Below the pieces are notes generated by a model. That model was not told the origin of the DNA and did no database searches. It was given only the letters and a program-made list of their open reading frames with translations. 64,000 nt of DNA from Clostridia bacterium (lineage in GTDB: Bacteria > Bacillota > Clostridia > Christensenellales > UBA1242), in contig JAZUAE010000021.1 in assembly GCA_045637805.1 (NCBI GenBank), positions 1,638-65,637 on the forward strand, written 5' to 3'. The position numbers and the translations under genes are program-made. Shown in pieces: positions 25,025 to 40,348 of this stretch (the first letter of the stretch is position 1; each line of letters begins with the position of its first letter).

Positions 25025-25059
25025 ATAAAAGCATTTTGCGAAAAGTGCTTTTATTTTTT

Positions 25060-25136
25060 GGGGGTATAGCTCAGCTGGCTAGAGCACCTGCCTTGCAAGC
25101 AGGGGGTCACCGGTTCGAATCCGGTTATCTCCACCA
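25060..25136 (+). tRNA. tRNA-Ala (anticodon TGC)
   Basis: Cloverleaf GGGGGTA/TATCTCC with G3:U70, anticodon arm CCTGC-CTTGCAA-GCAGG, TTCGAAT loop, encoded CCA. Confidence 0.97.
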
Positions 25137-25223
25137 CTATTTTTAAGGGATACCGTTCCCCGAGAGAAGAACTCGTAAAAACATGAATATAGAACTGCAC
25201 ACAGGCAGTTCACCCTATTTTAT

Positions 25224-25300
25224 AGGACTGTAGCTCAGTTGGTTAGAGCACCACCCTGATAAGGTGGGGGTCGGTGGTCCGAGTCCACTCAGTCCTACCA
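25224..25300 (+). tRNA. tRNA-Ile (anticodon GAT)
   Basis: AGGACTG/CAGTCCT acceptor stem, CCACC-CTGATAA-GGTGG anticodon arm, T-loop TCCGAGT, encoded CCA. Confidence 0.95.
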
Positions 25301-25335
25301 TAATAAAAATAACGAACCCGTGCGGTTCGTTTTTT
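25291..25335 (+). repeat. R0: tRNA-Ile 3' end plus hairpin type A (tRNA terminator)
   Basis: AGTCCTACCATAATAAAAATAACGAACCCGTGCGGTTCGTTTTTT. Confidence 0.9.
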
Positions 25336-25414
25336 AATGATGATATTTATGGCAAGTATTAGTAAAATAAAAAAGTTACCAATATTATACATAAAAAAAG
25401 AGGTCGTTTGACCT

Positions 25415-26098
25415 CTATATTTTTTCTAAATTTAATACTGGTTTTGCTGAAATATCTCCGTATGAGTTTTCCTTTTTATAACTCCCCGAATCTTTGTCAT
25501 AGGAATATACTGCTGGAAATCTATAAAATCCAGAAACTTGTTCATCGAATTCAAAGAAAAGGGTATTAATGTCAAGTGAAGGTGTAATTAACATTTCGCC
25601 CATTTGAAGTGCGGTTTTGTATTGTTTTGCATATGCATATGCAGATATTAAATCTTGAGAACTCCAAGTGTTTGAGTGTTCAATTTTTTGACGTATTGGA
25701 TGTGTATGTCCTAAAAATATAATAGGTTTTCCGAAACTTTTAAATTTTAAAGCAATAGTCGCAAATTCGTCAAGTTTATTAAGTGTTTCATTTTTATCTC
25801 TAAAATCAATTCCCTCAGTTGGAGAATTTGTTTGTGTAAATGGAGAGCATGTTTCAATACATATTTGACCATCTTCTCTTTCATAGCCTATTAAAATAAA
25901 ACCAATTTCTACCTGTCTCGCAGTGTTATTATTGTCAACTACAGCTTGTTTTAACGAGTTAAAATTATTTATTGCTCTTTTGCCAATCACAACATTATAT
26001 TTTGAATTTAAACAAGGCAAATTTTTTGCATTTGAAATATATGAGTCGGTCGAGAGGTTTTGTTTTTGCATTATTTCAATTATATTCATAAATTTCAT
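25415..26098 (-). CDS. JAB/MPN-like (JAMM motif) protein, cassette 1
   Basis: E(IGFILIG)...GHTHP...WSSQD resembles E-HxH-SxxD; own TTGCAA-17-TATAAT promoter. Confidence 0.55.
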   Translation of the reverse strand: MKFMNIIEIMQKQNLSTDSYISNAKNLPCLNSKYNVVIGKRAINNFNSLKQAVVDNNNTARQVEIGFILIGYEREDGQICIETCSPFTQTNSPTEGIDFRDKNETLNKLDEFATIALKFKSFGKPIIFLGHTHPIRQKIEHSNTWSSQDLISAYAYAKQYKTALQMGEMLITPSLDINTLFFEFDEQVSGFYRFPAVYSYDKDSGSYKKENSYGDISAKPVLNLEKI

Positions 26099-26153
26099 CT
26101 CCGAATTAAATTATATATTATAAAATCATAATTTGCAACAGATAAAATTAATA

Positions 26154-26223
26154 ATTTCGCATTAGAGATAATACGTTCTACCATAATAATTGTAAAACGA
26201 ATCACGAAAGTGGTTCGTTTTTT
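26154..26223 (+). repeat. R1: arm X + core + hairpin type B
   Basis: CGCATTAGAGATAATACGTTCTACCATAATAATTGTAAAACGAATCACGAAAGTGGTTCGTTTTTT; 32 bp identical to R6. Confidence 0.9.
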
Positions 26224-26225
26224 AA

Positions 26226-26347
26226 TTATTATCATAGTCCTGTGTGTTAGTACCACCAACCCCCAACCGTGCAAGGGGCATAATTTGTTTACAAATTTGC
26301 CCCTGCACCGAAGGTTGCCAAACTTGTTTTTGCATACGGTAGGGTGA
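26226..26347. repeat. Degenerate inverted tRNA-Ile 3'-half copy plus GC-rich hairpin element (copy 1)
   Basis: TTATTATCATAGTCCTGTGTG..ACCACCAACCCCCA resembles the reverse complement of tRNA-Ile; GTGCAAGGGGCA...TGCCCCTGCAC stem. Confidence 0.7.
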
Positions 26348-26396
26348 TAAAACGAAACACCGTTTTAGACTTTTTTTATGAAAAGTTATAAAAACA

Positions 26397-26462
26397 AGAT
26401 AAAACTTGTTGACTTTTCAACAAGTTTTATCTATACTATATCTTGTTGAAAAATCAACAAGA
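26397..26462 (+). promoter_or_regulatory. Promoter with two palindromic operators (CTTGTTGA-N4-TCAACAAG), probably MarR autoregulation
   Basis: 16-bp-arm inverted repeat 26397-26432 over -35 TTGACT; second copy 26441-26462 downstream of -10 TATACT (17-bp spacing). Confidence 0.75.
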
Positions 26463-26470
26463 GGTGGCTT

Positions 26471-26938
26471 ATGGATGAAAGATTTAGAACTTTTACGGTT
26501 CTTATAACAAAATTATATCGATCAATTAGAAAAATAAAAAGTGCAGAAACTGAAGAATATGGTTTGACAAATTCACATGTATCATGTCTGTATTATATTT
26601 ACAAAGAAGAAGCTTTAACTCTTACAGAATTAGTAGATATTTGTTTGGAAGATAAGGCGGTGTTATCAAAAGCTATTATGTTTTTAGAGTCAAATAATTT
26701 AGTTGTTTGTGATTCAAATCAAAAAAAGAGATATAATAATTATTTTAGACTTACGGAAAAAGGCTTAGATATAGCTAAAGGGATTGCTTTTAAGATAGAT
26801 AAAATTTTAGACTATGCGAGTTCTGAAATTGATAATTCGGATAGGGAAGTTTTGTATAAATCTTTGTCATCAATTAGTGATAAATTAGATAAATTTTGTG
26901 AAAATATGGAGGAAAATAAAAAATGGCTGTACAAATAG
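26471..26938 (+). CDS. MarR family regulator, cassette 2
   Basis: YGLT..H..CLYYI, LTLTELVDIC.EDKAVLSKAI..LE, RLTEKG. Confidence 0.85.
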   Translation: MDERFRTFTVLITKLYRSIRKIKSAETEEYGLTNSHVSCLYYIYKEEALTLTELVDICLEDKAVLSKAIMFLESNNLVVCDSNQKKRYNNYFRLTEKGLDIAKGIAFKIDKILDYASSEIDNSDREVLYKSLSSISDKLDKFCENMEENKKWLYK

Positions 26939-27771
26939 TTGTAGATTCGTCAAGTGATATTAATAGTGAGGAGGCTAAAAAATTAGGTGTTACTATGTTG
27001 CCAATATCTATTACTTTTGGCGAAGAGGAGTTTATGGATGGAGTTGATATAAACCATGAACAATTTTATGATAAGTTGTCTCAGTGTGATGAGTTGCCTA
27101 AAACGAGTATGATTAATGCATATAGATTTGAGGAAACTTTTGATAAAATTGTAAGCAATGAAGATGACATTGTTGCTATAATTTTATCATCAGAGTTGTC
27201 GGGAACATGTAATGCAGCAAAAAATGCAGCTGAAAAATATAAAGACAGAGTTTTTGTTGTTGATTCATTAAATGCTAGTGCAGGAATAAAAATTTTAGTT
27301 GAATATGCACTTCAGTTAAAACAAGAAGGAAAAAGTGCAAAAGAAATTTATGATATTTTAGAAGAAAAGAAGAAAAATATTCAAGTTCTTGCAATGGTAG
27401 ACACTTTGAAATATTTAAAAAAAGGTGGGCGCGTGTCTCCAATGTTGGCTTTTGCTGGAGAACTTATGGGAATAAAACCTATGGCTGCAGTTGTTGATGG
27501 AAAAGTAGAAGTTATAGGTAAAGTTATTGGATTAAAAAAGGCAATAAAGTATATTAATAATGAGATAGAAAAAGTGGGTGGTATTGACTTTAATATGCCA
27601 TTTTATACTCTTTATTCTGGTAATGATCAGACAAAAATTAATAATTATATTATTAATAATGAATGTTTATGGGAATGTGGTGTGGAGAATGTTAGAAAAA
27701 ATTGCATTGGTGCAACAATAGGAACACATGTTGGTCATGGTGCAATTGGTATTGCATTCTTTTCAAAATAG
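26923..27771 (+). CDS. DegV family fatty-acid-binding protein, cassette 2
   Basis: VDSSSD, LPKTS, LSSELSGT, VDS, LKYLKKGGR, IGTHVG.GAIG. Confidence 0.92.
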   Translation: MAVQIVVDSSSDINSEEAKKLGVTMLPISITFGEEEFMDGVDINHEQFYDKLSQCDELPKTSMINAYRFEETFDKIVSNEDDIVAIILSSELSGTCNAAKNAAEKYKDRVFVVDSLNASAGIKILVEYALQLKQEGKSAKEIYDILEEKKKNIQVLAMVDTLKYLKKGGRVSPMLAFAGELMGIKPMAAVVDGKVEVIGKVIGLKKAIKYINNEIEKVGGIDFNMPFYTLYSGNDQTKINNYIINNECLWECGVENVRKNCIGATIGTHVGHGAIGIAFFSK

Positions 27772-27811
27772 ATTAATATATTTTACAACAGTAATATAAT
27801 AGTTATTGTTA

Positions 27812-27877
27812 ATTCCGCATTAGAATGATTGCGTTCTACCATAATAAAAATAACGAACCCGTGCGGTTCGTTTTTTT
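27812..27877 (+). repeat. R2: arm Y + core + hairpin type A
   Basis: 27836-27876 is a 41-bp exact copy of 25295-25335. Confidence 0.92.
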
Positions 27878-28048
27878 ATTATTCTAGTACTGATTGAACA
27901 CGCACACCGACCCCCACACATGTTGCAGGGAAGCATAATGCGAAGCATTTGCCCCTGCAACATTGACAACCGAAAGGTTGGCAAATAAGGTGGGGTCGTA
28001 TTGAGGTGCACCGAAGGTTGCGGGTCTGTTTTGACATAAGGTGGGTGG
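27873..28048. repeat. Degenerate inverted tRNA-Ile 3'-half copy plus multi-hairpin element (copy 2)
   Basis: TTTTTATTATTCTAGTACTGATTGAACACGCACACCGACCCCCAC aligns to the reverse complement of the tRNA-Ile 3' half; ATGTTGCAGGG...CCCTGCAACAT and CAACC-GAAA-GGTTG stems; forward ATAAGGTGGGGTCG. Confidence 0.8.
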
Positions 28049-28112
28049 TTGATTCTTCATTGCATTTTACTTGTTTTATTACATTAAAAAAGCAAGTTGT
28101 TTTACGACTTGC

Positions 28113-28379
28113 CTACTTACCATCCCAATCTTCTGGCCTACGCCAATGGCCATATTTTTCAAAAAACAAATCTTGTTTTTTCATTATTTCATCAACTTCT
28201 TCGTTGGTGTATTTTTTTTGTTGTGGGTTATAACCAACTGCTTCCATATTCCACTCATCTAATCGCCACCTTATATCCAAAGTAGGTGCTTTTAATTTCT
28301 TATAGTCTGGATAATTAGTTTTTAATTTTTCAAAAGTGTATGGCAATAAATTTTTCCACCAAGGGTCATCATAATACAT
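28113..28379 (-). CDS. Hypothetical protein (88 aa), cassette 3
   Basis: GGAGA RBS and TTGACA-18-TAATAT promoter upstream; no family recognised. Confidence 0.6.
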   Translation of the reverse strand: MYYDDPWWKNLLPYTFEKLKTNYPDYKKLKAPTLDIRWRLDEWNMEAVGYNPQQKKYTNEEVDEIMKKQDLFFEKYGHWRRPEDWDGK

Positions 28380-28496
28380 ATTATTTTCTCCATTTAATAC
28401 ATATTACATCGCCCTCTTCAAATTTGTCAAATTCTTTAAATTTGAAATTTCTTCCTATTAAAAATTGAAATTCAACATCTTTATAGTTGGAGCAAT

Positions 28497-28535
28497 ATAA
28501 TTGTAAAACGAATTACAAAACAGATTCGTTTTTTT
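28497..28535 (+). repeat. R3: degenerate type-B hairpin repeat lacking the core
   Basis: ATAATTGTAAAACGAAT identical to R1, then ...TTCGTTTTTTT. Confidence 0.7.
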
Positions 28536-29124
28536 ACTTACATAAATCATAATATCCATCAACGAGGGATAAGTTTTCATCAGCCATCAATATAGAAAGT
28601 CCTTTCTTTTTACGATATTTAGTCCATCCGTAATGGGTTCTATAAATTAGTTTATATAAGTCTACATATTTATGTATTTCCATTTCTTGAACTTCTTTAT
28701 TGTTTAAAATCATAAAGAATTTATAACTATAAATTTCATCGATTGATTCATAAGATAGTATTTTTCTATCAATAAGATCGCATAATGTACGAACCCATGT
28801 TAAATAATTTAAAACATCTGCAGGCATTGTTTTTAAACTGGTGTATTTTTCTTTAGAATATTTTTTATCTAATTCATTTAAAACTTTAGTATTACTTTCT
28901 TGTTCGTAAAATGATTGATAGAATTCAACAATAAAAGATGCTTCATTGATTTGTTTGTCTTTTTTAAATTGAATCCATAATGCAACAGCACCAATGATTG
29001 CTGTAACTGTAGTTACAATTGTAGAAATGGTGTTTGAGTATTCTGTTAAAAAAGAACCGATAATAACACCTAAAACTATTAGTGCTGTACTTATAATCAA
29101 AATTATGTTAGAATTTTTTCTCAT
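28534..29124 (-). CDS. Hypothetical membrane protein (two N-terminal TM helices), cassette 4
   Basis: Hydrophobic N-terminus followed by a helical soluble domain; AGGAG RBS. Confidence 0.7.
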   Translation of the reverse strand: MRKNSNIILIISTALIVLGVIIGSFLTEYSNTISTIVTTVTAIIGAVALWIQFKKDKQINEASFIVEFYQSFYEQESNTKVLNELDKKYSKEKYTSLKTMPADVLNYLTWVRTLCDLIDRKILSYESIDEIYSYKFFMILNNKEVQEMEIHKYVDLYKLIYRTHYGWTKYRKKKGLSILMADENLSLVDGYYDLCK

Positions 29125-29216
29125 GTGTTTTCTCCTTTAAATGAAGTATATGGTTGATGCATATAAAAAGTCAAACAAATAGTTAGAGTTTGTAAAAATA
29201 TTATAAATATTAAAAG

Positions 29217-29282
29217 TCTTGCATTAGAGTGATTGCGTTCTACCATAAAAAAGATAATGAACCCGTGTGGTTCGTTTTTTTT
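29217..29282 (+). repeat. R4: arm Y + core + hairpin type A
   Basis: GCATTAGAGTGATTGCGTTCTACCATAAAAAAGATAATGAACCCGTGTGGTTCGTTTTTT. Confidence 0.88.
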
Positions 29283-29384
29283 ATTTTAATTTATTTCTTA
29301 ATTAAACATTTTTAACTATGTGTGTTGATTGTTTTTGATTGATTGCGTTTTATAATGATGGTATCTTATAAAGGAGGAAAATAT

Positions 29385-29741
29385 ATGAACACAGATAAGA
29401 TTTATGCAGAGCAAATTGCAAGCGAATATGCAGAAAAGGGGACTTCAAAGGTTAAAGCATTAAAGAGGCTTGATGCAAAAGCTAAAAACCCAGCTCATAT
29501 TTTTGCTTATACTTTTGGTATTATTTGTAGTTTAATGCTTGGTACAGGTATGAGCTTAGCAATGGGCGTTATTGGCGGAGGATCTATCCTTATGATGGCA
29601 ATTGGTATTATTGTTGGTTGCATTGGTATTTTTGGTGTAAGTATTAATTATTATTTATATAGAAAAATACTAGAAAATGGCAAAAAGAAATATGCAAATG
29701 ATATAATAGAACTTGCAAAACAAATTACATATGAGGAATAG
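29385..29741 (+). CDS. Small two-TM membrane protein, cassette 5
   Basis: LK.LD.KAK.PA.IFAY.FGI...L.LG.GMSLAM pattern; AGGAGG RBS. Confidence 0.75.
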   Translation: MNTDKIYAEQIASEYAEKGTSKVKALKRLDAKAKNPAHIFAYTFGIICSLMLGTGMSLAMGVIGGGSILMMAIGIIVGCIGIFGVSINYYLYRKILENGKKKYANDIIELAKQITYEE

Positions 29742-29743
29742 TT

Positions 29744-30307
29744 ATGAATAAGGCGGAAAGTAAATATTTTAACACTGCAAGGTTAATGAATACAGCATTA
29801 ATATATCTATTAGAAAAGAGAGAATTGGATAAAATAACGGTTAAAGAAATTTGTGAAAAAGCGGGAGTGAACAGGTCTACATTTTATTTACATTATGAAT
29901 CCATAGCAGATTTATTGGTTGAAACGGTGGAAAATTTGGGTAAAGATTTTAAAAATCAATTTTTGCAGACTTCAATATTAAAAAGTAATGATAAACCACA
30001 AATGTTGTTAACTGAGGAATATTTAATTCCATATTTGAACTTTGTAAAAGACAATAGGCGCATTTTAAAAACGATTCATTCTAGACCAGAAATTTTTGAT
30101 GTTGAACAAACTTACGAAAAAATGTGTTTTCAAATATTTTATCCCGCAATAAATATGTTTAATATTGACGATTCCGAAAAACCTTATATCCTTGAGTATT
30201 ATACAAAAGGTATTGTCGCAATTATTAATAAATGGATTTCAAACAACTGTGAAGATCCTATCGAGCTGATTATTAAAATAATTTATGATTGTGTTAAAAT
30301 TCCGTAA
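29744..30307 (+). CDS. TetR/AcrR family regulator, cassette 5
   Basis: ITVKEICEKAGVNRSTFYLHY HTH. Confidence 0.9.
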   Translation: MNKAESKYFNTARLMNTALIYLLEKRELDKITVKEICEKAGVNRSTFYLHYESIADLLVETVENLGKDFKNQFLQTSILKSNDKPQMLLTEEYLIPYLNFVKDNRRILKTIHSRPEIFDVEQTYEKMCFQIFYPAINMFNIDDSEKPYILEYYTKGIVAIINKWISNNCEDPIELIIKIIYDCVKIP

Positions 30308-30316
30308 TATGGTGAC

Positions 30317-30366
30317 CTCAGTCCTAACATAAATTTATAAACGAATCACGAAAGTGGTTCGTTTTT
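30317..30366 (+). repeat. R5: tRNA-type arm + core variant + hairpin type B
   Basis: CTCAGTCCTAACATAA is 15/16 identical to the tRNA-Ile 3' end (25288-25303), then AAACGAATCACGAAAGTGGTTCGTTTTT. Confidence 0.85.
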
Positions 30367-30417
30367 CTTTGTAGAAATTATGTTATTGTGATACAATTTA
30401 TTTAGGAGATAACATTT

Positions 30418-30852
30418 ATGGACAAGTTAGTTGATGTTAAAAATTATATAATTGCAAGAGAGCCTGTTTTTCATCATAGAGAATTTACAAATTCGAGAGA
30501 AGATGTGGAAAGAGAGACAACTGATGATTATTTTGAAATTAGTGCAAGTGGGTGTGATTACTCTCGTGAGTTTGTTTTAGATTATCTTGAAAAAAGATAC
30601 AAAGAAGAACCTGAAGATGATATGATAAAAGATGGCTGGAAGGTTAAAAACTTTAAAATTAGAAAGCTTGCTGACGAATTATACTTAGTAAATTACACTC
30701 TTCATGGACAAGGTAGAGTAACCAAGCGTGGTGAAATCTGGAAGGGAAACCTTACTGATGGAATCAAAATTATGTATCATCAAGGAACGGTTGTTGTTCC
30801 TGAAAGAATTAGCGAACACAAAAATTTGTTAAAAACATTAAATAAAAAATAA
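30418..30852 (+). CDS. NTF2-like (DUF4440-type) protein, cassette 6
   Basis: REPVFH..E, DYFEISASG..YSRE, YLVNYTL.QGRVT.R..IW, YHQGT. Confidence 0.7.
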   Translation: MDKLVDVKNYIIAREPVFHHREFTNSREDVERETTDDYFEISASGCDYSREFVLDYLEKRYKEEPEDDMIKDGWKVKNFKIRKLADELYLVNYTLHGQGRVTKRGEIWKGNLTDGIKIMYHQGTVVVPERISEHKNLLKTLNKK

Positions 30853-30854
30853 TC

Positions 30855-30918
30855 TTTCCGCATTAGAGATAATACGTTCTACCATAATAAAAAAACGAAC
30901 CCGTGTGGTTCGTTTTTT
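30855..30918 (+). repeat. R6: arm X + core + hairpin type A
   Basis: 30859-30890 identical to 26158-26189, then AACGAACCCGTGTGGTTCGTTTTTT. Confidence 0.9.
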
Positions 30919-30980
30919 ATTTGACATAATTTGCATGATTATAATAAAATATTTATAGCGTACAAAAAGGAGGGGTATAT

Positions 30981-31547
30981 ATGAAAAAGTTTTTTGCTAA
31001 AAAATGGACACTAATAGGTTTTGTTATTGCATCTGCAATATTTCTTGGTGGACTGCTTGCAATGCTTTTAAGTCCAGTCTTCTATGTTGGAGCTTATAGT
31101 GGTGGTGAGGGTGATGATAATTATAGTTATAAATACTATATTCATTTCAAGTCATGTAATAAGTATGAAGTAACACGAGAAGCTAAATTAATTTCAAATG
31201 GAACAACCACAACAACAGTGACTGAATATTGGTACTATAGACAAGGTGATGTTGTCATTTCTATAGACAAAACAGAAGATATGACAAAAGAACAGTACGA
31301 TAAAACTGTAAAAGAAATTAAAGATTTAAGTGAAGAAGAATTTGAGGTTTTAGTTAAAACACGCGGATCAAAAATTAATTTGCGCTACATGGAAATAAAG
31401 ACACTTACAAGTAGTGTAAAATATAGTAACAAGTCTAGTATAACATTCCTTGTAATTGATTCAATTCTATTAGGTCTTGCACTTACTGGTACAGGATTGT
31501 CAATATTTTATTATGTTAAAGCAAAAAAGAAAAAATCTAAAAACTAA
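30981..31547 (+). CDS. Hypothetical membrane protein (N- and C-terminal TM helices), cassette 7
   Basis: Two hydrophobic segments flanking a soluble domain; AGGAGG RBS. Confidence 0.7.
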   Translation: MKKFFAKKWTLIGFVIASAIFLGGLLAMLLSPVFYVGAYSGGEGDDNYSYKYYIHFKSCNKYEVTREAKLISNGTTTTTVTEYWYYRQGDVVISIDKTEDMTKEQYDKTVKEIKDLSEEEFEVLVKTRGSKINLRYMEIKTLTSSVKYSNKSSITFLVIDSILLGLALTGTGLSIFYYVKAKKKKSKN

Positions 31548-31559
31548 ATAGTAATAGAT

Positions 31560-31589
31560 AAAATCGAACCCGTGTGGTTCGTTTTTTTT
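31560..31589 (+). repeat. R7: type-A hairpin without core (array end; also a terminator between convergent genes)
   Basis: CGAACCCGTGTGGTTCGTTTTTTTT. Confidence 0.8.
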
Positions 31590-31593
31590 GTAA

Positions 31594-32514
31594 TCATTTT
31601 TTATATTCTGTTTTGTAATTTCTTTTTACGAATATGTTAATATGGCGGGGAATAACCTCAAAATTAAATGAACCACTAAAACCATATTCACCATCTAAAT
31701 TTACTATATTTTTATCATCAAGTTTCACTTGGAATTTGTTAAGTTCTAAAACAATACAATTCTTAGAATTTTTAATAGTTTTTATACCAAAAACAAAAGA
31801 TTTAAAAATATTAAATAAAGATCTTATTGATATTCCTTTTTTACTGTTTTCCTTAAATAAAATTACGTTTACATTTCCATCTGTACAATCGGCTTTATTG
31901 TTGATTTTATAGCCGCTGACATATTTACTATTAGCTATAATACCTAAGATTATATTATCACTTAAAATTTCGTTATCATATTTAAGTGTGATAGGGAATT
32001 TATTAACTTTACCAAGGTCTTTTACACCGTTTATGTAATATGCGAGTTTGCCAAAAGCTTGTTTTGCTTTTTGAGAAGCTCTATAACTCGAGCCTGTAAA
32101 AACTCCAAATGCGCAAACATAAATTCCATATTTATTTCCTGCCTTAAAAATGTCATGTAAAATTGTATGTTCATCAAGTATGATTTTTACAGCCTTTTTT
32201 ACATTTGAAGGTATTTTTAATGAATGTGCAAGATCATTTGTTGTACCTGTTGGTATATAGCCGATTTTTGGCCTATTTTCATTGTTTGCAATACCTGAGA
32301 TTATTTCGTTCATAGTTCCATCTCCACCAGAAACAATGATTGTGTCGTAAATTCCACAAGCCTCATTAGCAAAATCGCGGGCATCGCCACGCTTTTCTGT
32401 TCTTTTTACATCAACGGTGTCATATTTTGATTTTAAAGAAGATATTATAAATTCTTTCGTGTTTTTTGAGACACCTTTTCCACTTACAGGATTATAAATG
32501 TATAAACACTTCAT
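31594..32514 (-). CDS. Diacylglycerol/lipid kinase family (YegS/DagK-like)
   Basis: IYNPVSGKG, SGGDGTMNE, IPTGTTNDLA, NLDGE. Confidence 0.9.
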   Translation of the reverse strand: MKCLYIYNPVSGKGVSKNTKEFIISSLKSKYDTVDVKRTEKRGDARDFANEACGIYDTIIVSGGDGTMNEIISGIANNENRPKIGYIPTGTTNDLAHSLKIPSNVKKAVKIILDEHTILHDIFKAGNKYGIYVCAFGVFTGSSYRASQKAKQAFGKLAYYINGVKDLGKVNKFPITLKYDNEILSDNIILGIIANSKYVSGYKINNKADCTDGNVNVILFKENSKKGISIRSLFNIFKSFVFGIKTIKNSKNCIVLELNKFQVKLDDKNIVNLDGEYGFSGSFNFEVIPRHINIFVKRNYKTEYKK

Positions 32515-32650
32515 ATTTTCAGTGTACCATTTTATTATATCGAAATCAAGTATTTAAAATTAAATGAAAATTTAAAATAAACATAAATATATTTAAAATC
32601 ATAAACTATATTGATGGCATAAGTCATCAAAATTACAAAGGAGGCAAAAA

Positions 32651-33508
32651 ATGGAAACAATTTCAAATCAAGCCCATGTATCTTTTACGTACGATGGCAA
32701 TGATGTTGTTAAAACAAATGATTCTAATATTGTAAATTCTTCAATTAAAGATAAATACAGTATTTTAGTCGAAAAATCATCAACAACAGAGTGTTTTAGA
32801 GCAGGTGAAATTATCAACTATATGGTTCGTGTTACAAATACAGGTTGTGGTTGTTTAAGTAATTTTACTATCATCGACAACCTTGGAGGTGCAGACTATT
32901 TAACCTTTGTTGAAGGTAGCGCTAGATTATTTGTAAATGGAACAATGCGTGAAATTACACCGTCTAACCTATCACCATTATCATTTACTATTGCGGACAG
33001 GTTAGAAAGAGACGCCGAACTTATTTTGCAATATAATGCCCTTGTAGATGCAAATATTAGTGCTGATATTTCTGAGATCACCAATCGTGTAGATGTAAAG
33101 GGATATGCATGTGGTTGTGGCTGTGAAAGAGGCCGTGACTGTGTTGAAGGCTCAGCAGAATATACTATTTCTAGGTGTCTTTTTGCTGAAGTGTTAATTA
33201 CAAAAGCAATTTCAAACGACAATGTTTGCTGCGGTGAAGAATTAGATTATATTATAACACTTACAAATATTGGCAATATTGATGCAACAAATGTAATTGT
33301 TACTGATACTCTTCCTGAATCGTTTAATACAACGGAAATACACATGGAAAATAATGGCAATCATTATCAATTTGATGCAAGCGAATACACAATTGATGCG
33401 TCTAACTTGTTGACACTTCCAAATGAAACTGGAACCGCTATACTTGTTCCTGCACTTGGACCAGGTGTTGATAACACAACAAGAATTCGTATTCATGGAC
33501 ACATGTAA
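32651..33508 (+). CDS. DUF11 (conserved repeat domain) Cys-rich protein
   Basis: Two K.....GE...Y.(V/I)...N.G......V.D.L units; CGCGC clusters. Confidence 0.7.
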   Translation: METISNQAHVSFTYDGNDVVKTNDSNIVNSSIKDKYSILVEKSSTTECFRAGEIINYMVRVTNTGCGCLSNFTIIDNLGGADYLTFVEGSARLFVNGTMREITPSNLSPLSFTIADRLERDAELILQYNALVDANISADISEITNRVDVKGYACGCGCERGRDCVEGSAEYTISRCLFAEVLITKAISNDNVCCGEELDYIITLTNIGNIDATNVIVTDTLPESFNTTEIHMENNGNHYQFDASEYTIDASNLLTLPNETGTAILVPALGPGVDNTTRIRIHGHM

Positions 33509-33643
33509 CAAAAGAAGAGTCAATCAAGCGATTGACTCTTTTTTGTTACTTGTATGAAATTTTTATTTAAAAGTTTAAAATTATTAGGTAAATTTAACTG
33601 TTGAGTGATATAATTAATGAGAAAAAACAAAGGAGATAAAAAA

Positions 33644-34048
33644 ATGATAGATAATGGTATTGAATTGAATTTAGAAAGCGGTGAACCTCATTTTGAAAAC
33701 GATACAATGGTTGCGGTTAAGTCTAATAATTTAAAAAATAACACATTAATCGGATCCTATGTTATTATTCCAAAATCTGAAGTGGGGTCGCCATTCGAGT
33801 TGTCCGATAAAGAGTGGACAGATTGTAAATCTTTAATGATTGAAGTAAAGGAATATTTAGATAAAAAATATGCACCAGATGGCTATAATGTTGGCTGGAA
33901 TGTCGGGGAAGTGGCTGGTCAGCACGTTGCTCATGCGCATCTCCACATTATTCCAAGATATGCTGATGAGCTCTATGCTGGAAAAGGACTTCGTCATTGG
34001 TTTAAACAACCGGAAAACATGAGAGCATCATTAAAGGATAAAAAATAA
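33644..34048 (+). CDS. HIT family hydrolase
   Basis: PDGYNVGWNVGEVAGQHVAHAHLHIIPRY. Confidence 0.9.
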   Translation: MIDNGIELNLESGEPHFENDTMVAVKSNNLKNNTLIGSYVIIPKSEVGSPFELSDKEWTDCKSLMIEVKEYLDKKYAPDGYNVGWNVGEVAGQHVAHAHLHIIPRYADELYAGKGLRHWFKQPENMRASLKDKK

Positions 34049-34081
34049 ATTAATAAAAAACGAGCCTCGTAGGCTCGTTTT

Positions 34082-34690
34082 TTAATTAAATTCTGGAAAT
34101 GGGTCACTAACATTTGGCTGCATTCTACTTTCACATATTTTTGTATAAGATTCATAAACGCGCGTTGTGTCATTTTTATCTACTGCGCAAATAAAATTAC
34201 ATAAATGATCTAAACTTTCTACAACATGATTCACAATATTTGGTGCACAAATGTCCTCATTGCCATAAAAGGTATCGGTATCCCACTCAAGAGGTTCGTT
34301 TAGCTCAAAATTAAAGTATTTAAGCGTAGCGTGTATTGTTATTTCTGAAATATAAAACAAGTGTTCAATCATTGTCATGCGCTGATCTAGGGTTTTAGCA
34401 AAATGATAATGTAAAAAATAAACGGCATACCATTGCTGACATTCGTTTAAAAATGCCATTTGAGTAGAATATTCCTTTGATCCAGTTATATTAAGAAGAT
34501 TGTTTTGGTAAGTTATACGATTTTCTTTTATTTGGTCGTAATATTTGTTTACATATGGCAAAAATTTCAGATTATCAATATCGTGGTTTAAAGATTTCAT
34601 CATAGAATTTATTTTTTTAACGTTTTCTTTGTTGTGTTTTACTATATCTGAAAAATTTAAAGAGTGTTGGCTAAAAATATCGTTTTTCAT
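34082..34690 (-). CDS. Hypothetical protein
   Basis: 202-aa ORF with TTGACA-18-TATATT promoter directly upstream. Confidence 0.6.
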   Translation of the reverse strand: MKNDIFSQHSLNFSDIVKHNKENVKKINSMMKSLNHDIDNLKFLPYVNKYYDQIKENRITYQNNLLNITGSKEYSTQMAFLNECQQWYAVYFLHYHFAKTLDQRMTMIEHLFYISEITIHATLKYFNFELNEPLEWDTDTFYGNEDICAPNIVNHVVESLDHLCNFICAVDKNDTTRVYESYTKICESRMQPNVSDPFPEFN

Positions 34691-34846
34691 AAATAAGAAT
34701 ATAACACTTTTAAGCCTGTTTTGTCAATAGAGGATTGCTGCAAAGTTTAAAAAGTTGAATAAGGTTTATGCCCAAATTTCTTATAGTGACATCTTGAATT
34801 TTACAAAATTGTATTATATAATATATATAAGTAGAGGAAATTTAGT

Positions 34847-36427
34847 ATGATAGAGAAAAAACTTAGAGCGGAAAGTTTGTTAACGTCTAACATTAGTGAA
34901 GAACTTGCTTCAGTTAAGATAGATGCACTTGGTTTGCCTAATAAAATGCTCGATAAATTGAAGTCTTTTGAGGTGTATAATTTAAACACTGGTAAGACTC
35001 AATTATTTAAAAATATTGGCGATTTAATGAAAATGGGCAGAAATGGGTTAATGGTTCAACTGGGACAAAGAAATATTAGATATTCAGAGGCTGACGAAAT
35101 CATTGTTACGATTGAAAATAAACTTGCTAAAATAGGCTTAAAATTTGAGGATTCAGACTTTACCGTACTCGACGTGAAAATTAGTGAGCTAGAAGTGTCT
35201 GGGAAGGCTCACGAACTTTTAACTCGTCTTCCAAATCATATTCGCAATTTGTTAGATTTGTCTATTCAAAATAAGGCAAAACTAAGACATAAAGTTGTGG
35301 AAAATGGACAAGGTATAGTCAGCGAGATTGAAAGAGCTATGGAAAAATATGGAATGAGGTTTGTTGAGTCTAGTTTTAAATTAGACAAAAATAATTTTTT
35401 TCCAACAGAATGGATATTCAGAAAAAATGCCTCAATAGTAAATGAAGAAAGAAAAAAAGATATAAATAATGTTCAAGTAAGATTGTCCGAAAATAAATTT
35501 GCAAAAAAAGATATAAATGCCATTGATAAAAAGTGTGTTTCAGAATTACGTGCAATAGGTTTAAGCGACAAAAATATTGTTTATTTAGTAAATAAGATAG
35601 GTGTGAATAGTGTAGATGATTTAAAAAACAAAACTTATAATGAATTATGTTTTGCTTTAAATCAAAACATATCTGCTATTGGTAAGATAAGAAAGTATTT
35701 AAGAAACCAAGGAATTGAATTGAATAGGGTTTATATTAGAAAAAGGAAACAAGAAATTGTAGAATTTGATATAGAAAACATGAGTGAGGAAGAAAAGCAA
35801 AAGTTTAAAGATTCAAGTGTTGACGTTTTGGGACTTCCTGCAAGTGCAACAAAAAAACTAAAAGATGAATATGGAATTTTAAAGATTGATGATCTACAGA
35901 AAATTTCAAGGGAACAGCTCGATACTTTTAAATATAACTTAAGATCTCATGATCAACTTAAGAAGACGATACGAAGACTTTTTCCATACAAGAGTGACAT
36001 TTGTCTGATTATGAGAAAAAAAGATAAAGAAAAGTTCGTTAAATACAATCTTGAAAATATTCATAAGTTTGACAAAAATGAAGTGCTAAATGCTCCACTT
36101 TGTGCATTTGGTGTTACACTTCACACTCAAAAATTTTTAAAAAACAGAATGGGAATAGAAAAATTGTCAGACTTTACAGGAAAAACTTATACAGATATAG
36201 CTATGGCTTTGAATAACAACTTAAATCAAGCTGCTCTAATTTCTAAAATGTTAAAAGCGATAGATCTACCTCTTGCGCGATCTAAAAAAATTGACGACAA
36301 CGAAAACTTGGACGATTTTGTTTTTGAATCAAGTAATGGAGAACAAGTTGAAAATAACGGTAATGATTTTGTAAGAAAAAATTGCAAAAAATCAAGAAAA
36401 GAATTTGATGCGGACGAAATGATATAA
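34847..36427 (+). CDS. Protein of about five tandem RNA polymerase alpha-CTD-like (HhH) repeats
   Basis: Repeats such as IDALGLP..MLDKL...IGDL, ISELEVS.KA..LL...I..LLDL, IGLSDK....L...GVNSVDDL, VDVLGLP..A.KKL...GI..IDDL. Confidence 0.6.
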   Translation: MIEKKLRAESLLTSNISEELASVKIDALGLPNKMLDKLKSFEVYNLNTGKTQLFKNIGDLMKMGRNGLMVQLGQRNIRYSEADEIIVTIENKLAKIGLKFEDSDFTVLDVKISELEVSGKAHELLTRLPNHIRNLLDLSIQNKAKLRHKVVENGQGIVSEIERAMEKYGMRFVESSFKLDKNNFFPTEWIFRKNASIVNEERKKDINNVQVRLSENKFAKKDINAIDKKCVSELRAIGLSDKNIVYLVNKIGVNSVDDLKNKTYNELCFALNQNISAIGKIRKYLRNQGIELNRVYIRKRKQEIVEFDIENMSEEEKQKFKDSSVDVLGLPASATKKLKDEYGILKIDDLQKISREQLDTFKYNLRSHDQLKKTIRRLFPYKSDICLIMRKKDKEKFVKYNLENIHKFDKNEVLNAPLCAFGVTLHTQKFLKNRMGIEKLSDFTGKTYTDIAMALNNNLNQAALISKMLKAIDLPLARSKKIDDNENLDDFVFESSNGEQVENNGNDFVRKNCKKSRKEFDADEMI

Positions 36428-36497
36428 TAGCTTTATATTTCTTTGAATTATTAGCTTTTTAGTGTATAATTTATGTATAAATATTTTGAGGTGTTTT

Positions 36498-37184
36498 ATG
36501 AGTAGAATGTATAATTTGTATGATAATAAAATCAGAGAGGAACTTTTGAACATGCCTATCAAGGCTTTGGGATTACCTTTAGAAGTTGAAAAGGTTTTAT
36601 CTTCTGTTTGTGAGATGGGTGTTTATGGAATTGAAAAGAATACTATTAAAACGGTTGGCGATTTATTAGAAAAGGGAAAGAGCAGAATTGAAAATGTTCT
36701 TTCAAGAAATGTATATTATCAAAAATACCCGAATATTATTAGAGATATAGAAGAAAAACTGATGAGGTTTGGTTTTAAATTTGAAGATTCGGATTTTTCA
36801 GCATTAGATGTTAGAGTTAAAGAATTAGATGTATCTGATAAAACAAAACAATTTTTAGATAAAATTTCTCATAACACTAAAACTATTGGTGATTTAAGTA
36901 TAAAAAGAATTAGATCTTTAACTGTTCGCATACTTGATGATGATTATAGTGTGCTCCTTGATTTGAAAAATGCAATGCAGGAATATGGTGTAAAATTTGA
37001 AGATGCATCATACGAGTTGGATAAAACAAAATTTTTCCCGTTAAAAGATAAAGTATTTTTCTTAAGCAATAAAACTATTAATGAATATTTAAAAAATTAT
37101 AAAAGACCAAGAAAATTTCAGAAATCAAAAGAAATTTTCCAAAGAGAATTTAAAAAACAATCAGTAGAAAATGAAGCAATATAA
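36498..37184 (+). CDS. Shorter paralogue with two alpha-CTD-like repeats
   Basis: Clear similarity to the N-half of the upstream gene (IKALGLP, VGDLL, IEEKL..G.KFEDSDF..LDV...EL.VS.K, AM.EYG..F..S..LDK..FFP). Confidence 0.6.
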   Translation: MSRMYNLYDNKIREELLNMPIKALGLPLEVEKVLSSVCEMGVYGIEKNTIKTVGDLLEKGKSRIENVLSRNVYYQKYPNIIRDIEEKLMRFGFKFEDSDFSALDVRVKELDVSDKTKQFLDKISHNTKTIGDLSIKRIRSLTVRILDDDYSVLLDLKNAMQEYGVKFEDASYELDKTKFFPLKDKVFFLSNKTINEYLKNYKRPRKFQKSKEIFQREFKKQSVENEAI

Positions 37185-37288
37185 AAGGGGTTGCATAATG
37201 CAATCTCTTTTTTGTTTTTACATATGTTTTTTTATTTGCTTATATAAGAAAAATGCTGTATTATATAACTGTAACGTGGAGGAAAAAT

Positions 37289-37609
37289 ATGAAAGTTTTA
37301 CAATTTTTATTATCTGATAATTTTGATACAATGTTTGAAAACACTGCTAATAACGTAAGCACTTTTTCGACAATTATGTTTGTTCTTTCTGGAATTGTCA
37401 CTGTGGCAATAGTGGTATTCATAATTTGTGTTGTGATTAAATCAACGAGGAAAATGAAGGATATAACAGGCGGTGTAATGGGGGAGATTAAGGAAAATAT
37501 TGAAGATAATTCTAACCCAAATATTACATGTGAATACTGCGGATCTGTAAACAAGAAAGAAAATTCTACTTGTAAACAGTGTGGTGCATCACTTAATCAT
37601 AAAAAATAG
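37289..37609 (+). CDS. Membrane-anchored zinc-ribbon protein
   Basis: One TM helix; C-terminal CEYCG...CKQCGA. Confidence 0.7.
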   Translation: MKVLQFLLSDNFDTMFENTANNVSTFSTIMFVLSGIVTVAIVVFIICVVIKSTRKMKDITGGVMGEIKENIEDNSNPNITCEYCGSVNKKENSTCKQCGASLNHKK

Positions 37610-37736
37610 ACAATAAAACGAGCTTTTGGTTTAAAGCTCGTTTTTTTTTGTTTTTAATTAACATTTAATATAATTCATTTGATTTTTATTTTTAAATACT
37701 TTATATTTAAAATACTAAAGATAAGGAGAGAAATCT

Positions 37737-38045
37737 ATGAGTAAGGAAGAAAACAAGAAGTTTTTTGATGGTATAGGCATGTTTGCTGCTGTTATCACAA
37801 TTATTACATATTTAGTACTTGCAATTAATGCTCAATGGCCATTCATTAATAATGGAACTATAATGAACATTCTTTTAGTTATAAAAGTTTATGCTCCTCT
37901 TGTAGTTGTTGCAATTACTGGACTTGAGTGGGTGTCTGGAAGAAGTTTCTTCGTTAAAATTATTTTCTATGCAGCTATGGCTTTAGTTGTTATTTCAATG
38001 TTTTTCCCATCAACATGGACACAGTTTGTGGGATTAATAGGTTAA
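37737..38045 (+). CDS. Small three-TM membrane protein
   Basis: Hydrophobic ORF with AGGAG RBS and downstream terminator. Confidence 0.7.
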   Translation: MSKEENKKFFDGIGMFAAVITIITYLVLAINAQWPFINNGTIMNILLVIKVYAPLVVVAITGLEWVSGRSFFVKIIFYAAMALVVISMFFPSTWTQFVGLIG

Positions 38046-38079
38046 TAGCAAACAAAAAAGACGCAATCGCGTCTTTTTT

Positions 38080-38925
38080 TTATTTCTCAAAAAATGCCAT
38101 TCCAACTGCGCCTGGCCCTATATGTGTACCGATTGTGCAGCCAAGGCTGTATGATTTTATTTCTTCGTTAGATTGATTTAAAATTTCAGGGATTGTTTTT
38201 ATATATTCTTCTAATCCAGTGTTTGTAGCGGAATATACAAAACAAAGTGGCATAGAATAGTCAATTCCTTTTGTTTGGTTTATCATTTGGGTTAACATAA
38301 GATGTTTTTTCTTTGTTCCCATAGCTTTACCTACAACTTTAACTTCGCCATCTATTACTTGAATCAATGGTTTTATAGATAGTATTGTTCCGATTGTTGC
38401 ACTTGCTGCGGAAATTCTACCGCCTTTTTTTAGATATTCAAGAGTGTCGATTGCAGCTATTATTTTTAATCTAGTCTTAGCATCGTCTAATATTGTTTTA
38501 ATGGTTTTTGCCGGTAAGTTTTGTTTAGCGAGCTCTAAAGCATAAAGACCAAGTAGTCTTTCGCCTATAGTTGCGCTCAAGCTATCTACTACAAAAACTT
38601 TTCCATCAAACTTTTCAGCAGCACTTACTGCGTTTTTATAAGTGCCAGAAAGTTTAGAAGATAGGGTAATCATTACAACATCTGAGCCGTCTGAGGTTGC
38701 TTTTTTAAATTCTTCTTCAAATCTAAATGGATTAATTTGACTGGTTTGAGGCAGCCCTGTGCTATTCTTTAGTCTATTATAAAATTCATTATGAGTGATA
38801 TTGACACCATCAAGGTATTCCTCAGTGCCAAATCTAATTTCAATAGGAATAAAACCAAGTCCAAGTTCTTTAGCTTCGTTTACAGTAATATCTGATGCTG
38901 AGTCGATAATGATTTTAACCGCCAT
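38080..38925 (-). CDS. DegV family fatty-acid-binding protein
   Basis: IDSASD, LPQTSQ, LSSKLSGT, LEYLKKGGRI, IGTHIGPGAVG; ATG 38925 behind AGGAG. Confidence 0.92.
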   Translation of the reverse strand: MAVKIIIDSASDITVNEAKELGLGFIPIEIRFGTEEYLDGVNITHNEFYNRLKNSTGLPQTSQINPFRFEEEFKKATSDGSDVVMITLSSKLSGTYKNAVSAAEKFDGKVFVVDSLSATIGERLLGLYALELAKQNLPAKTIKTILDDAKTRLKIIAAIDTLEYLKKGGRISAASATIGTILSIKPLIQVIDGEVKVVGKAMGTKKKHLMLTQMINQTKGIDYSMPLCFVYSATNTGLEEYIKTIPEILNQSNEEIKSYSLGCTIGTHIGPGAVGMAFFEK

Positions 38926-39038
38926 AAGTTCTCCTAAGTGTGTTTTATATGCGTAGTATAACACAATGTTATATACATTGTAAAACAAAAGATTGTTTAA
39001 AATTCTCGCGAATTAAGAAAAGGCAAAAAACCTTGCCT

Positions 39039-40262
39039 TTATAATTCATAACCATTCTCTTCTAAGAGAGCTCTTGCGCTTTCAACCGAGTCAACTCCAG
39101 TTTTGTTTTTTATAGGTGCAAACTCTTTACTGCGCACTACCTCATAAGGTAGGCAAGAGTTGCAAAGTTCTATCATATCTACACAAAGCATTTCAAATTT
39201 GTGTGCGTTTGGTGAACTAGGTGATTGAAGATTGCCGTCTTTATCTATATATGGGACTTTTTTATGAACAACGTGAACTGGCAATGCTTCGTCTTTTATT
39301 TTATGTAATTGTTCTACGTTAAACAAATAGTTTAGTATAACGCCAAAATTATACACACGTTCGCCTTCACTGTTGGTCTCTTGAGCCATATCGTCGGTTA
39401 GGTCTATATATTCTATAATTGATGGCTTGCCATTTTTATTACACATTACACCAACTTTTTCATAAGGGTCAGCTTTTCGTATAACCTTTGCACCAACCTC
39501 ATATCCGCCTGAAAGTGTTGCACCGATAAAAGCAGGGTCTGCTATTTTCTGTAGTACATTGTCTACAGCAAATACATTTAACCACTTTATGTTAAAATAT
39601 TCGAGCATTTGTTTTGCATCATCGTTTTTAAGTAGGGAATTAAACCAACCGCCGTTGCCGTTTGGGCTTGTAGCTAATCGGTTTTTTTCTTCGAGCAAAA
39701 TTTTACCATTTTCGTCAACGCAAGGAGCCATATCTTGAACAAAGAATCTAATATATCTTTCGTCGTAACCAAAATAATCATGTTCTTTTAAAAAGTTTAT
39801 AGTTGCCTCATTATTCTTTTCACTTGTCATAATGAAAAATGGAACAGGCTTTCCGCATTTTCTGGATACTTCTATAAGGTTTTCAAATAGTCTTTGGAAA
39901 ATATAGACATCACGAGTTTTTCCGATATTATACATTCCTTTTGGCGCATCAGACCCAAGTCTTGTACCCATACCGCCAGCAAGAAGCAAAGCACCAACTT
40001 CATAATTTTGCAATGCCTTGTTGCCAACTTTTTCAAAGTCTTGTTTGTATTCATCAATCTCAGGCACTTTTAATGCGTCGATAGGTGTTATTTTAGAATC
40101 TTGTTTTGTTTCGTTTGCGTTTAAGTGCGATAGGTAATCAAAGTCTGTTTCAAGGATTTGTGTGTATAATTCCTCTTTTTCTTTGTTATCCAAATCGTTT
40201 TCAAATTGCAATAAATGTTCTTGATTATATTTTTTTAATTTTGCTATTACCTTATTTCTCAT
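39039..40262 (-). CDS. UDPGP-family pyrophosphorylase (UDP-GlcNAc pyrophosphorylase-like)
   Basis: LLAGGMGTRLG...PKG, IMTS, SPNGNGG, VDN, EKVG, KFE, EFAPIKN. Confidence 0.85.
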   Translation of the reverse strand: MRNKVIAKLKKYNQEHLLQFENDLDNKEKEELYTQILETDFDYLSHLNANETKQDSKITPIDALKVPEIDEYKQDFEKVGNKALQNYEVGALLLAGGMGTRLGSDAPKGMYNIGKTRDVYIFQRLFENLIEVSRKCGKPVPFFIMTSEKNNEATINFLKEHDYFGYDERYIRFFVQDMAPCVDENGKILLEEKNRLATSPNGNGGWFNSLLKNDDAKQMLEYFNIKWLNVFAVDNVLQKIADPAFIGATLSGGYEVGAKVIRKADPYEKVGVMCNKNGKPSIIEYIDLTDDMAQETNSEGERVYNFGVILNYLFNVEQLHKIKDEALPVHVVHKKVPYIDKDGNLQSPSSPNAHKFEMLCVDMIELCNSCLPYEVVRSKEFAPIKNKTGVDSVESARALLEENGYEL

Positions 40263-40348
40263 AATTACTCCTTTTATTTTATTAAATTGTAAAAAAATAT
40301 ACGTTAATGTAGTAAAAAATGTGACCAACAATTTGGTTGGTCACTATT

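Follow-up and report, generated by a model that had tools for sequence, protein, structure and literature searches.

Small gene cassettes between copies of a tRNA end behind tRNA-Ile in a Clostridia genome

Repeats and cassettes behind tRNA-Ile

How did a row of small gene units come to lie behind a single tRNA gene, separated by repeats that contain the end of that tRNA? The question is raised by a locus of a Clostridia bacterium (assembly GCA_045637805.1, here G000), a metagenome bin of 1.10 Mb in 29 contigs with ~32% GC and 96.5% completeness. The stretch of DNA that we analyzed, hereafter the window, comprises the 64,000 nucleotides of G000:C21:1638-65637, and an initial annotation of it had described eight same-orientation repeats behind tRNA-Ile(GAT) and had proposed that they bound separately captured gene cassettes. 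Our preferred answer, which we regard as reasonably probable, is that the array was built by repeated site-specific integration at the tRNA-Ile 3' end (tandem accretion) and now consists of recombinase-less islets.

All eight repeats (R0-R7) were found on the + strand at the positions given by that annotation. A full repeat consisted of three parts. First, a left arm of ~35 nt (AATTYCGCATTAGAR..ATTGCG or ATACG; also GCATTAGAR..CGTT), which has no match to the tRNA, was conserved in R1, R2, R4, R5 and R6. Second, the core GTYCTACCATAA, of the general form GTYCTA(C/A)CATAA, corresponds to the tRNA end plus TAA; it was present in R0, R1, R2, R4, R5 and R6 and degenerate in R3, and R5 carried the form CTAACATAA and retained ten additional tRNA bases (CTCAGTCCTA). 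Third, the right arm was a terminator hairpin of one of two types followed by a T-run: type A (CGAACCCGTGYGGTTCG) in R0, R2, R4, R6 and R7 (the last three in an A' form), and type B (CGAATCACGAAAGTGGTTCG) in R1 and R5 and, degenerate, in R3. The longest exact stretches in common were 41 bp between R0 and R2, 32 bp between R1 and R6, 28 bp between R1 and R5, and 24 bp between R4 and R7. R3, R7 and an extra copy at 29334-29359 were degenerate. Three features had escaped the initial annotation, whose list of R0-R7 was otherwise correct: this extra degenerate left arm, the left arm AATTCCGTAATATGGTGA of R5, and the GC-rich structured stretches after R1 and R2.

How the units were joined is indicated by the two arms. 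The left arms grouped R1 with R6 (identical) and R2 with R4 (near-identical), whereas the right arms grouped R0 with R2, R1 with R5, and R4 with R6 and R7. Thus, left and right arms were assorted independently, which argues that exchange happened at the core. Such discordance is predicted if exchange takes place in the core and each internal junction combines one unit's right end with the left end of the following unit.

The repeats were neither expected by chance nor common in the genome. The motif CTACCATAA had 6 copies in the window, 5 of them at the locus on the + strand, compared with 0.53 expected, and none of 100 shuffled sequences contained 6 or more. Across all 29 contigs, a generic hairpin pattern gave 10 matches (7 on the + strand; the 3 on the - strand were palindromic re-hits), the left arm with up to 6 substitutions gave 4 and GAACCCGTGYGGTTCG gave 5, all of them at this locus. 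An ordinary genome-wide terminator family, which the initial annotation had named as one finding that would overturn its proposal, is therefore ruled out, since every repeat copy was confined to this locus. Terminator-like sites were abundant between 25000 and 32700 (18 versus 1.9 expected), but promoter-like sites showed no enrichment there (46 versus 46.1), so that the earlier statement that most units own a promoter holds for individual good matches only. The left arm was also considered as the start of a minus-strand gene (MVER...), which lacked a ribosome-binding site and any support.

The repeats enclose seven units of 0.5-1.7 kb, each with one or two genes and none with a recombinase. 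Three of the seven cassettes were on the - strand, a terminator was present at every junction, and GC content was even (0.25-0.35). The cargo genes were mutually unrelated according to family searches. Among them, the 227-aa protein, previously labelled JAB-like, had a weak PADLOC JAB match (E 8e-5) and none in Pfam, NCBIfam or PHROGs, and the NTF2-like label of the 144-aa protein found no support in any of the four libraries. The four cargo genes that were tested are rare or patchy in the family. Of 120 family genomes, 1 had a homologue of the 227-aa protein, of which a set of 5.8 billion proteins contained just 3 clusters; homologues of the 196-aa membrane protein were present in 12 of 120, patchily distributed and with several copies in some, those of the 188-aa membrane protein in 4 of 120, with weak matches, and those of the 144-aa protein in none of the 120; all four proteins were missing from the sister species G001. 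The surroundings of homologues were also inspected: that of the 227-aa protein in G010 had neither a tRNA nor attachment-site-like repeats, and 1 of 5 contexts of the 196-aa protein (G117) was near a tRNA.

Phage and plasmid collections gave matches only to the tRNA and to the membrane protein-TetR gene pair of cassette 5. This pair (window 29373-29925) showed 64-74% nucleotide identity to gene pairs on large replicons of Roseburia and Lachnospira eligens, which suggests either transfer from Lachnospiraceae or a pool common with them. In cassette 2, a 16-bp perfect palindrome (window 26397-26432) overlaps a promoter-like site upstream of the MarR gene and is probably a MarR operator. A second DegV-family gene was located at window 38080-38988, in the variable region past the array. 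The coordinates of all features are collected in Table 1.

Table 1. Features of the tRNA-Ile array in the window, and loci of the GC-rich element elsewhere in the family
Feature	Position	Strand	Source or remark
tRNA-Ala(TGC)	25060..25136	+	ARAGORN, Rfam
tRNA-Ile(GAT), anchor of the array	25224..25300	+	ARAGORN, Rfam
R0: tRNA end (core CTACCATAA) and type A hairpin; 41 bp identical to R2	25295..25335	+	
Cassette 1: 227-aa protein, weak JAB match	25415..26098	-	
R1: left arm, core, type B hairpin	26147..26223	+	
GC-rich structured element, type 2, decayed; closing helix CCACC../..GGTAGGGTG around a long hairpin	26253..26346	+	homologues in G120, G097, G184
Cassette 2: MarR-like (26471-26938) and DegV/FakB-like (26923-27771)	26471..27771	+	
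R2: left arm, core, type A hairpin	27805..27876	+	
GC-rich element, type 2, decayed; ends ATAAGGTGGGGTCG, then a second decayed tRNA-Ile 3' half (28036-28052)	27905..28052	+	
Cassette 3: 88-aa open reading frame, no family match	28113..28379	-	
R3: degenerate core and degenerate type B hairpin; 80% identical to R1 over 49 nt	28486..28534	+	
Cassette 4: 196-aa membrane protein	28534..29124	-	
R4: left arm, core, type A' hairpin	29213..29281	+	
Extra degenerate left arm and core (77%), without hairpin	29334..29359	+	
Cassette 5: 132-aa membrane protein and TetR regulator	29343..30307	+	
R5: left arm, tRNA-like stretch CTCAGTCCTAACATAA, type B hairpin	30290..30367	+	
Cassette 6: 144-aa protein, no family match	30418..30852	+	
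R6: left arm (32 bp identical to R1), core, type A' hairpin	30852..30920	+	
Cassette 7: 188-aa membrane protein	30981..31547	+	
R7: type A' hairpin only; terminator common to the convergent lipid-kinase gene (31594-32514)	31553..31589	+	
Remaining variable region; no syntenic counterpart in the sister species, no repeats	31590..40376	.	
GC-rich element loci across the family	L061:1500-1970; L058:1500-1780; L060:1480-2000; L083:1100-2000 (minus strand)		often tandem, tRNA-Ile 3' half after

Relatives, other tRNAs and a GC-rich structured element

Comparison of the locus between related genomes had been proposed in the initial annotation as a check, and one other species of the genus was compared (G001, MetRS 81% identical). 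The upstream neighbors of the array are housekeeping genes (BipA, rubrerythrin, SDR, MetRS and MarR), and the block SDR-MetRS-MarR-tRNA-Ala-tRNA-Ile was kept in G001. Directly after tRNA-Ile the content differed throughout: nothing in window 25301-40376 matched the G001 locus, and synteny came back at 40377. In G001, another terminator comes after the CCA, and the 9.9 kb that follow contain other genes (MgtE, YitT, TetR and unknowns) but no copies of the tRNA end; the lipid kinase directly past R7 was absent from G001 as well. The array is the tRNA-proximal part of a 15-kb variable region.

Searches beyond the genus returned little that resembled the repeats. Against 60 relatives, the R2 unit gave short matches only (E 7e-5 to 1.6e-3). 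No match to the left-arm pattern was found in 185,579 species genomes or in viral contigs, and the single match in metagenome contigs, inside the start of an open reading frame, is probably due to chance. One match to the core-plus-hairpin pattern in viral contigs lay in coding sequence without a tRNA nearby and was discarded as chance. The other MetRS members of the same 90% cluster were 86-88% identical and not conspecific, so that cluster sizes are unusable for strain variation. Among public runs, only X1 contained any of the locus (word share 0.05; contigs only, most listed joints weak), and the parts that it does not cover are uninformative. One X1 contig of 1299 nt spans the cassette-1 gene (25411-26146) with 13 differences over 736 nt; after cassette 1 it has 5 other letters and then an R2-type rather than an R1-type left arm, and its first 504 nt had no match of at least 85% in window 24000-34000. 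This contig, a single one that ends inside a repeat, is compatible with cassette-level reshuffling.

The same build was observed at other tRNAs. When the 39 tRNAs of G000 were scanned for downstream copies of their ends, several copies were found at tRNA-Ile (5) and at tRNA-Glu(CTC) on contig C14 (2). The tRNA-Glu end TTCTCCGTAGTGGTACCA (18 nt) recurred exactly at +204 and +1153, or over ~21 nt through CCATAA, and both copies were accompanied by a common left arm TGCGAGTA and a terminator (L027:4438-5750; C14:96437-97750). The second copy equals the sequence downstream of the tRNA for 45 nt past CCA. The first unit of the tRNA-Glu array is 190 nt of non-coding DNA, and the second comprises a helix-turn-helix gene and a membrane protein. 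At the tRNA-Glu of G001, one copy encloses 310 nt of non-coding DNA; since the non-coding unit also occurs in this species, it is old. In G117, which belongs to another genus, a 90-nt repeat 2.2 kb downstream of tRNA-Ser(TGA) is composed of 14 nt of the tRNA end and a terminator (L035:3522-5950), and it flanks a DNA methyltransferase and a type II restriction enzyme (PADLOC E 8e-30) with no recombinase. A homologue of the 196-aa cassette protein lies directly past this restriction-modification pair. At the Ile, Glu and Ser loci alike, the left boundary of every repeat fell in the 3' part of the tRNA, that is, in the T-loop, T-stem or acceptor stem. A boundary in this part is the usual mark of site-specific integration (the tRNA "sublocation" scheme). 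A copy of the tRNA-Thr(CGT) end 1.9 kb downstream of its gene was within coding sequence and was attributed to chance.

The GC-rich stretches after the R1 and R2 hairpins (~95 and ~150 nt) have common motifs and folding z-scores of -2.6 to -3.7. At the Rfam gathering score only tRNA passed; the next model, HPnc0260, reached 42-48 bits against a cut-off of 59, over the tRNA part. Six-frame translation of these stretches revealed no conserved coding, and the G000-type GC motif had no match in species genomes. Similar material was frequent at the tRNA-Ile of relatives. A search for the tRNA-Ile gene matched 102 of 121 genomes (the 120 family genomes and G000), and at least 27 of the matches listed cover the 3' part of the tRNA alone (from position 20-37 to 77). 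Of 29 loci examined by reading, our own excluded, 10 carried a GC-rich element or part of the tRNA in a second copy no more than ~340 nt downstream of tRNA-Ile, which is an integration hotspot in this family. The usual unit in relatives consisted of a terminator, the GC-rich element and a copy of the tRNA-Ile 3' half starting ATAAGGTGGGGG, with z-scores of -3.0 to -5.1. The element, 100-130 nt long, begins with CCCCACCTT and continues with two adjacent hairpins, the motif ATCAGGGTG, which is the reverse complement of the tRNA anticodon arm, and one to three more hairpins; its start CCCCACCTT pairs with AAGGTGGGG and thereby closes the entire element.

Matches to the pattern CCACCTT-N30-50-ATCAGGGT came from 43 of 301 family genomes, representing 21 of 58 genera, as opposed to 5 matches for a reversed control pattern. 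Nearly all distinct inner sequences (18 of 19) form a pair of adjacent hairpins (12-15 pairs) whose stems differ greatly in sequence, and in 14 of the 18 two-hairpin copies a tRNA-Ile end was located 40-70 nt upstream. The two hairpins show abundant compensatory changes and appear to be strongly covarying. The form seen in the window (TGCAAGGGG...CCCCTGCA) is rarer, being assigned by reading to 4 genomes (G000, G097, G120 and G184) of the 10 of 301 that matched its pattern, and in G184 it occurs in tandem 162-nt units of terminator, spacer and element.

Two genomes from two genera, G062 and G132, carry an 8-kb element at tRNA-Ile, placed between a tRNA 3' half and a copy of the GC-rich element plus 3' half (L092:470-8800; L091, reverse strand). 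Its products include a large serine recombinase of 597 aa together with a Rep-like protein, a tyrosine recombinase and a PD-(D/E)XK nuclease. Between G062 and G132 the large serine recombinase is 98.8% identical, and the last ~40 codons of its gene overlap both the GC-rich element and the tRNA 3' half. Because the GC-rich element lies within the attachment site of this 8-kb element, it is best read as an attachment-site arm of a currently mobile element family, and the stretches after R1 and R2 would be decayed relics of such arms. The crossover of the 8-kb element is in the tRNA-Ile anticodon loop, not at the 3' end, and no element with the left arm of the array was found.

Further insertions near tRNA-Ile were noted in three relatives. 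In G032, where two tandem units are present, the T-loop of the tRNA-Ile 3'-half copies is split by a second insertion of ~85 nt (L072:1380-2010), and a similar insertion is present in G026 (L050). In G073, whose tRNA-Ile is identical to that of the window, a partial tRNA-Ile copy with its anticodon arm replaced by a 32-nt stretch containing a hairpin lies between tRNA-Ile and tRNA-Ala (L036:1575-1680).

How the array may have formed

Phage_integrase and Resolvase searches found no match on contig C21, which carries the array. Elsewhere in the genome, PF00589 (Phage_integrase) had 5 matches, on C1, C9 (two), C28 and C29, and 4 serine recombinases were present, none of them on the contig of the array. 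The initial annotation had stated that the window lacks integrases, transposases and relaxases; tyrosine and serine recombinases are indeed absent from the whole contig, and no family search was made for DDE transposases or relaxases. IS110 and Y1 transposases were not found in the genome, and the TnpB domain gave two sub-threshold matches only, on which grounds bridge RNA, omega RNA and IS200/605 ends were set aside.

Integrases do stand behind other tRNAs of this genome. At tRNA-Ser(TGA), the tRNA is followed by a terminator and then by a 468-aa integrase gene directed at the tRNA, and removing the integrase from this layout yields the cassette layout of the array. At tRNA-Lys, an integrase lies 2 kb downstream. 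The three phage-type integrases of G000 are located near tRNA-Ser, near tRNA-Lys and near a copy of the tRNA-Thr end. Two distant end copies look like larger integrated elements: an exact 16-nt copy of the tRNA-Leu(TAG) end 55 kb from its gene (C18:18907-74225), with two serine recombinases between, and an exact 16-nt copy of the tRNA-Thr(GGT) end on another contig (C21:555-630 / C9:39464), near two tyrosine recombinases.

If the array grew by tandem accretion, each circular element would have brought an attachment site made up of the left arm, a core of ~12 nt equal to the tRNA end, and a bidirectional terminator. Through recombination at the core, the newcomer would have come to lie beside the tRNA and would have pushed older elements downstream, and an internal junction would thus combine the right end of one element with the left end of the next. 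The recombinases would later have been deleted, leaving islets of one or two genes that resemble cis-mobilizable elements (CIMEs); alternatively, the islets may never have had a recombinase and may have used that of a visiting element. We infer the circular intermediates, the order of events and the acting recombinase from the layout. The degenerate copies (R3, R7 and 29334-29359) and the decayed attachment-site arms suggest that the array is old and in part fossil. The essence of the initial proposal, that separately acquired modules were added at the tRNA end by recombination at the core, agrees with the discordant arms, the synteny break, the rare cargo and the lack of a recombinase in cis.

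Several observations weigh against this explanation. First, no intact donor element with the left arm of the array was present in the species genomes, viral contigs or metagenome contigs scanned, and the 96.5% complete assembly holds no recombinase specific for tRNA-Ile or tRNA-Glu. Second, the seven units have intact open reading frames and no debris of recombinase or phage genes, which is tidier than random decay predicts. Third, identity between repeats does not stop at the tRNA but continues into the non-conserved terminator, reaching 41 nt at the Ile locus, 66 nt at tRNA-Glu and 90 nt in G117; such lengths exceed what a recombinase needs, and homologous exchange fits them as well. Finally, no excision product or conspecific empty site was seen in the data at hand, namely the contigs of one other run.

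The third of these points leads to an account based mainly on homologous recombination, in which one or a few founding integrations would have been followed by Campbell-type insertion of circles, unequal crossing-over and gene conversion between repeats of 40-90 nt. It requires no recombinase, it explains identity that runs well past the tRNA into the terminator (41, 66 and 90 nt), and it fits the observation, made at the Ile and the Glu locus alike, of an exact copy of the tRNA-adjacent right arm two junctions further downstream. However, the left boundary of every repeat inside the tRNA 3' part is a signature of site-specific integration and not of random homology, and the arms switch sharply at the core. 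Homology tracts of this length are also short for RecA-dependent exchange. We consider this account unlikely.

A working gene-capture platform, integron-like and anchored at the tRNA, is a further and rather doubtful explanation. Here a recombinase in trans would excise, shuffle and insert single-gene cassettes at the arm-core-terminator sites. The cassettes are small and intact and include a terminator, their arms are independently assorted, and cassette 1 occurs in the X1 sample with another left-arm variant and another left context; the exact 41- and 32-bp identities suggest recent events, and the same build recurs at tRNA-Glu and around the restriction-modification cassette of G117. On the other hand, no dedicated recombinase was identified beside the array or elsewhere, the repeats were found in one species only, the degenerate copies and decayed arms indicate fossilization, the non-coding tRNA-Glu module in common with the sister species is old, and no circles or empty sites were observed in the one other run (contigs only). 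A related idea, to which we give equally little credence, is that the repeats are live sites, extended in places by the structured element with its copy of the tRNA-Ile anticodon stem as closing helix, and that visiting recombinases shuffle cassettes in genomes of ~1 Mb. If so, the locus would be a tRNA-anchored functional counterpart of the integron that stores accessory and defense genes, and the structured element would be part of the site or of its control.

The two remaining explanations are very unlikely. An assembly artefact, in which fragments of co-occurring strains or species were joined at short common repeats, could be suspected in a 29-contig metagenome bin with an X1 contig ending within a repeat, but the longest exact repeats (41 bp) are below the usual read length, GC content is even across the cassettes, and independent loci in other genomes have the same build. 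Local duplication of ordinary terminators or regulatory RNA sites along with genes, without mobile DNA, would suit hairpins that look like good intrinsic terminators, several of them bidirectional, but not mutually unrelated cargo, a tRNA-derived core and a non-tRNA left arm without a role in termination, or the absence of the region from the sister species.

Comparison with known systems

The initial annotation had presented the locus as a candidate new system. That claim does not hold, because tandem islands at tRNA or tmRNA 3' ends, many of them integrase-less, have already been described. In Dehalococcoides, tandem islands downstream of ssrA are bounded by a 20-bp repeat that corresponds to the 3' end of ssrA, each copy having a conserved non-ssrA motif next to it; 15 islands lack an integration module, and in complete islands the integrase is a large serine recombinase directed at the gene and overlapping the repeat (PMC3146451). 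Our array resembles these islands in its tandem position after a stable RNA gene, its 3'-end repeats, its non-matching arm and its integrase-less units, and the recombinase of the 8-kb tRNA-Ile element of G062 and G132 is likewise gene-directed and overlaps the repeat. The array differs in its anchor (tRNA-Ile and not tmRNA), in its units of 0.5-1.7 kb with one or two genes as opposed to multi-gene islands, in having an integration module in none of the seven units, and in the terminator within each repeat.

A second parallel is provided by the CIMEs of streptococci, decayed integrated elements that keep attL and attR without genes for integration or transfer, and beside which newcomers accrete at the terminus of their target gene, often a tRNA (PMC5704250). 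The array would be alike in having been stacked by integration at a tRNA end and in having lost its integration genes. CIMEs usually number one or two per site and measure several kb, and their mobilization in cis by a neighboring integrative and conjugative element (ICE) has been shown experimentally. By contrast, no ICE or integrative and mobilizable element adjoins the array. In islands of Prochlorococcus, one integration after another at tRNAs displaces older elements inward, and partial tRNAs and degenerate elements remain (bioRxiv 10.1101/2020.12.28.424599). These islands and their tycheposons share with our locus a streamlined genome, a position next to tRNAs, and scattered partial tRNAs and degenerate elements. 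Tycheposons own tyrosine recombinases and replication genes, whereas the array comprises relics only, belongs to another phylum and has much smaller units.

With integrons, the array shares an ordered row of small cassettes between recombination-site-like repeats and unrelated accessory cargo. Integron cassettes are mostly without promoters and share an orientation, being transcribed from a common promoter. The array has no intI, the tyrosine recombinase gene of integrons, and no attI, its cassettes occur in both orientations, its repeats contain terminators, and its anchor is a tRNA. The attC consensus consists of imperfect inverted repeats ending RYYYAAC...GTTRRRY, and reading of the array repeats, which are not attC-like, revealed none of these end motifs. 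Small recombinase-less modules served by enzymes encoded elsewhere are also known, such as the pdif modules of Acinetobacter plasmids and other Xer-exploiting elements; their sites are 28-bp XerC/XerD sites, and pdif alternates in orientation. The left arm was considered as a dif site, and by eye it agreed with the E. coli dif at ~16 of 28 positions, which is unconvincing.

The locus shows how a strongly reduced genome can store accessory genes, namely as islets of one or two genes behind tRNAs where no recombinase resides. Should these islets still be mobile, few site-specific cassettes outside integrons would be as small. As a by-product, a widespread structured element at tRNA-Ile attachment sites, apparently covarying and absent from Rfam, would mark a family of large-serine-recombinase elements that moves between genera. 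A keyword literature search of limited reach found no description of seven single-gene recombinase-less units in a row at one tRNA. Thus, among islands of an overall kind that is already known, the units of this array are unusually small, tidy and numerous, with a terminator built into each site.

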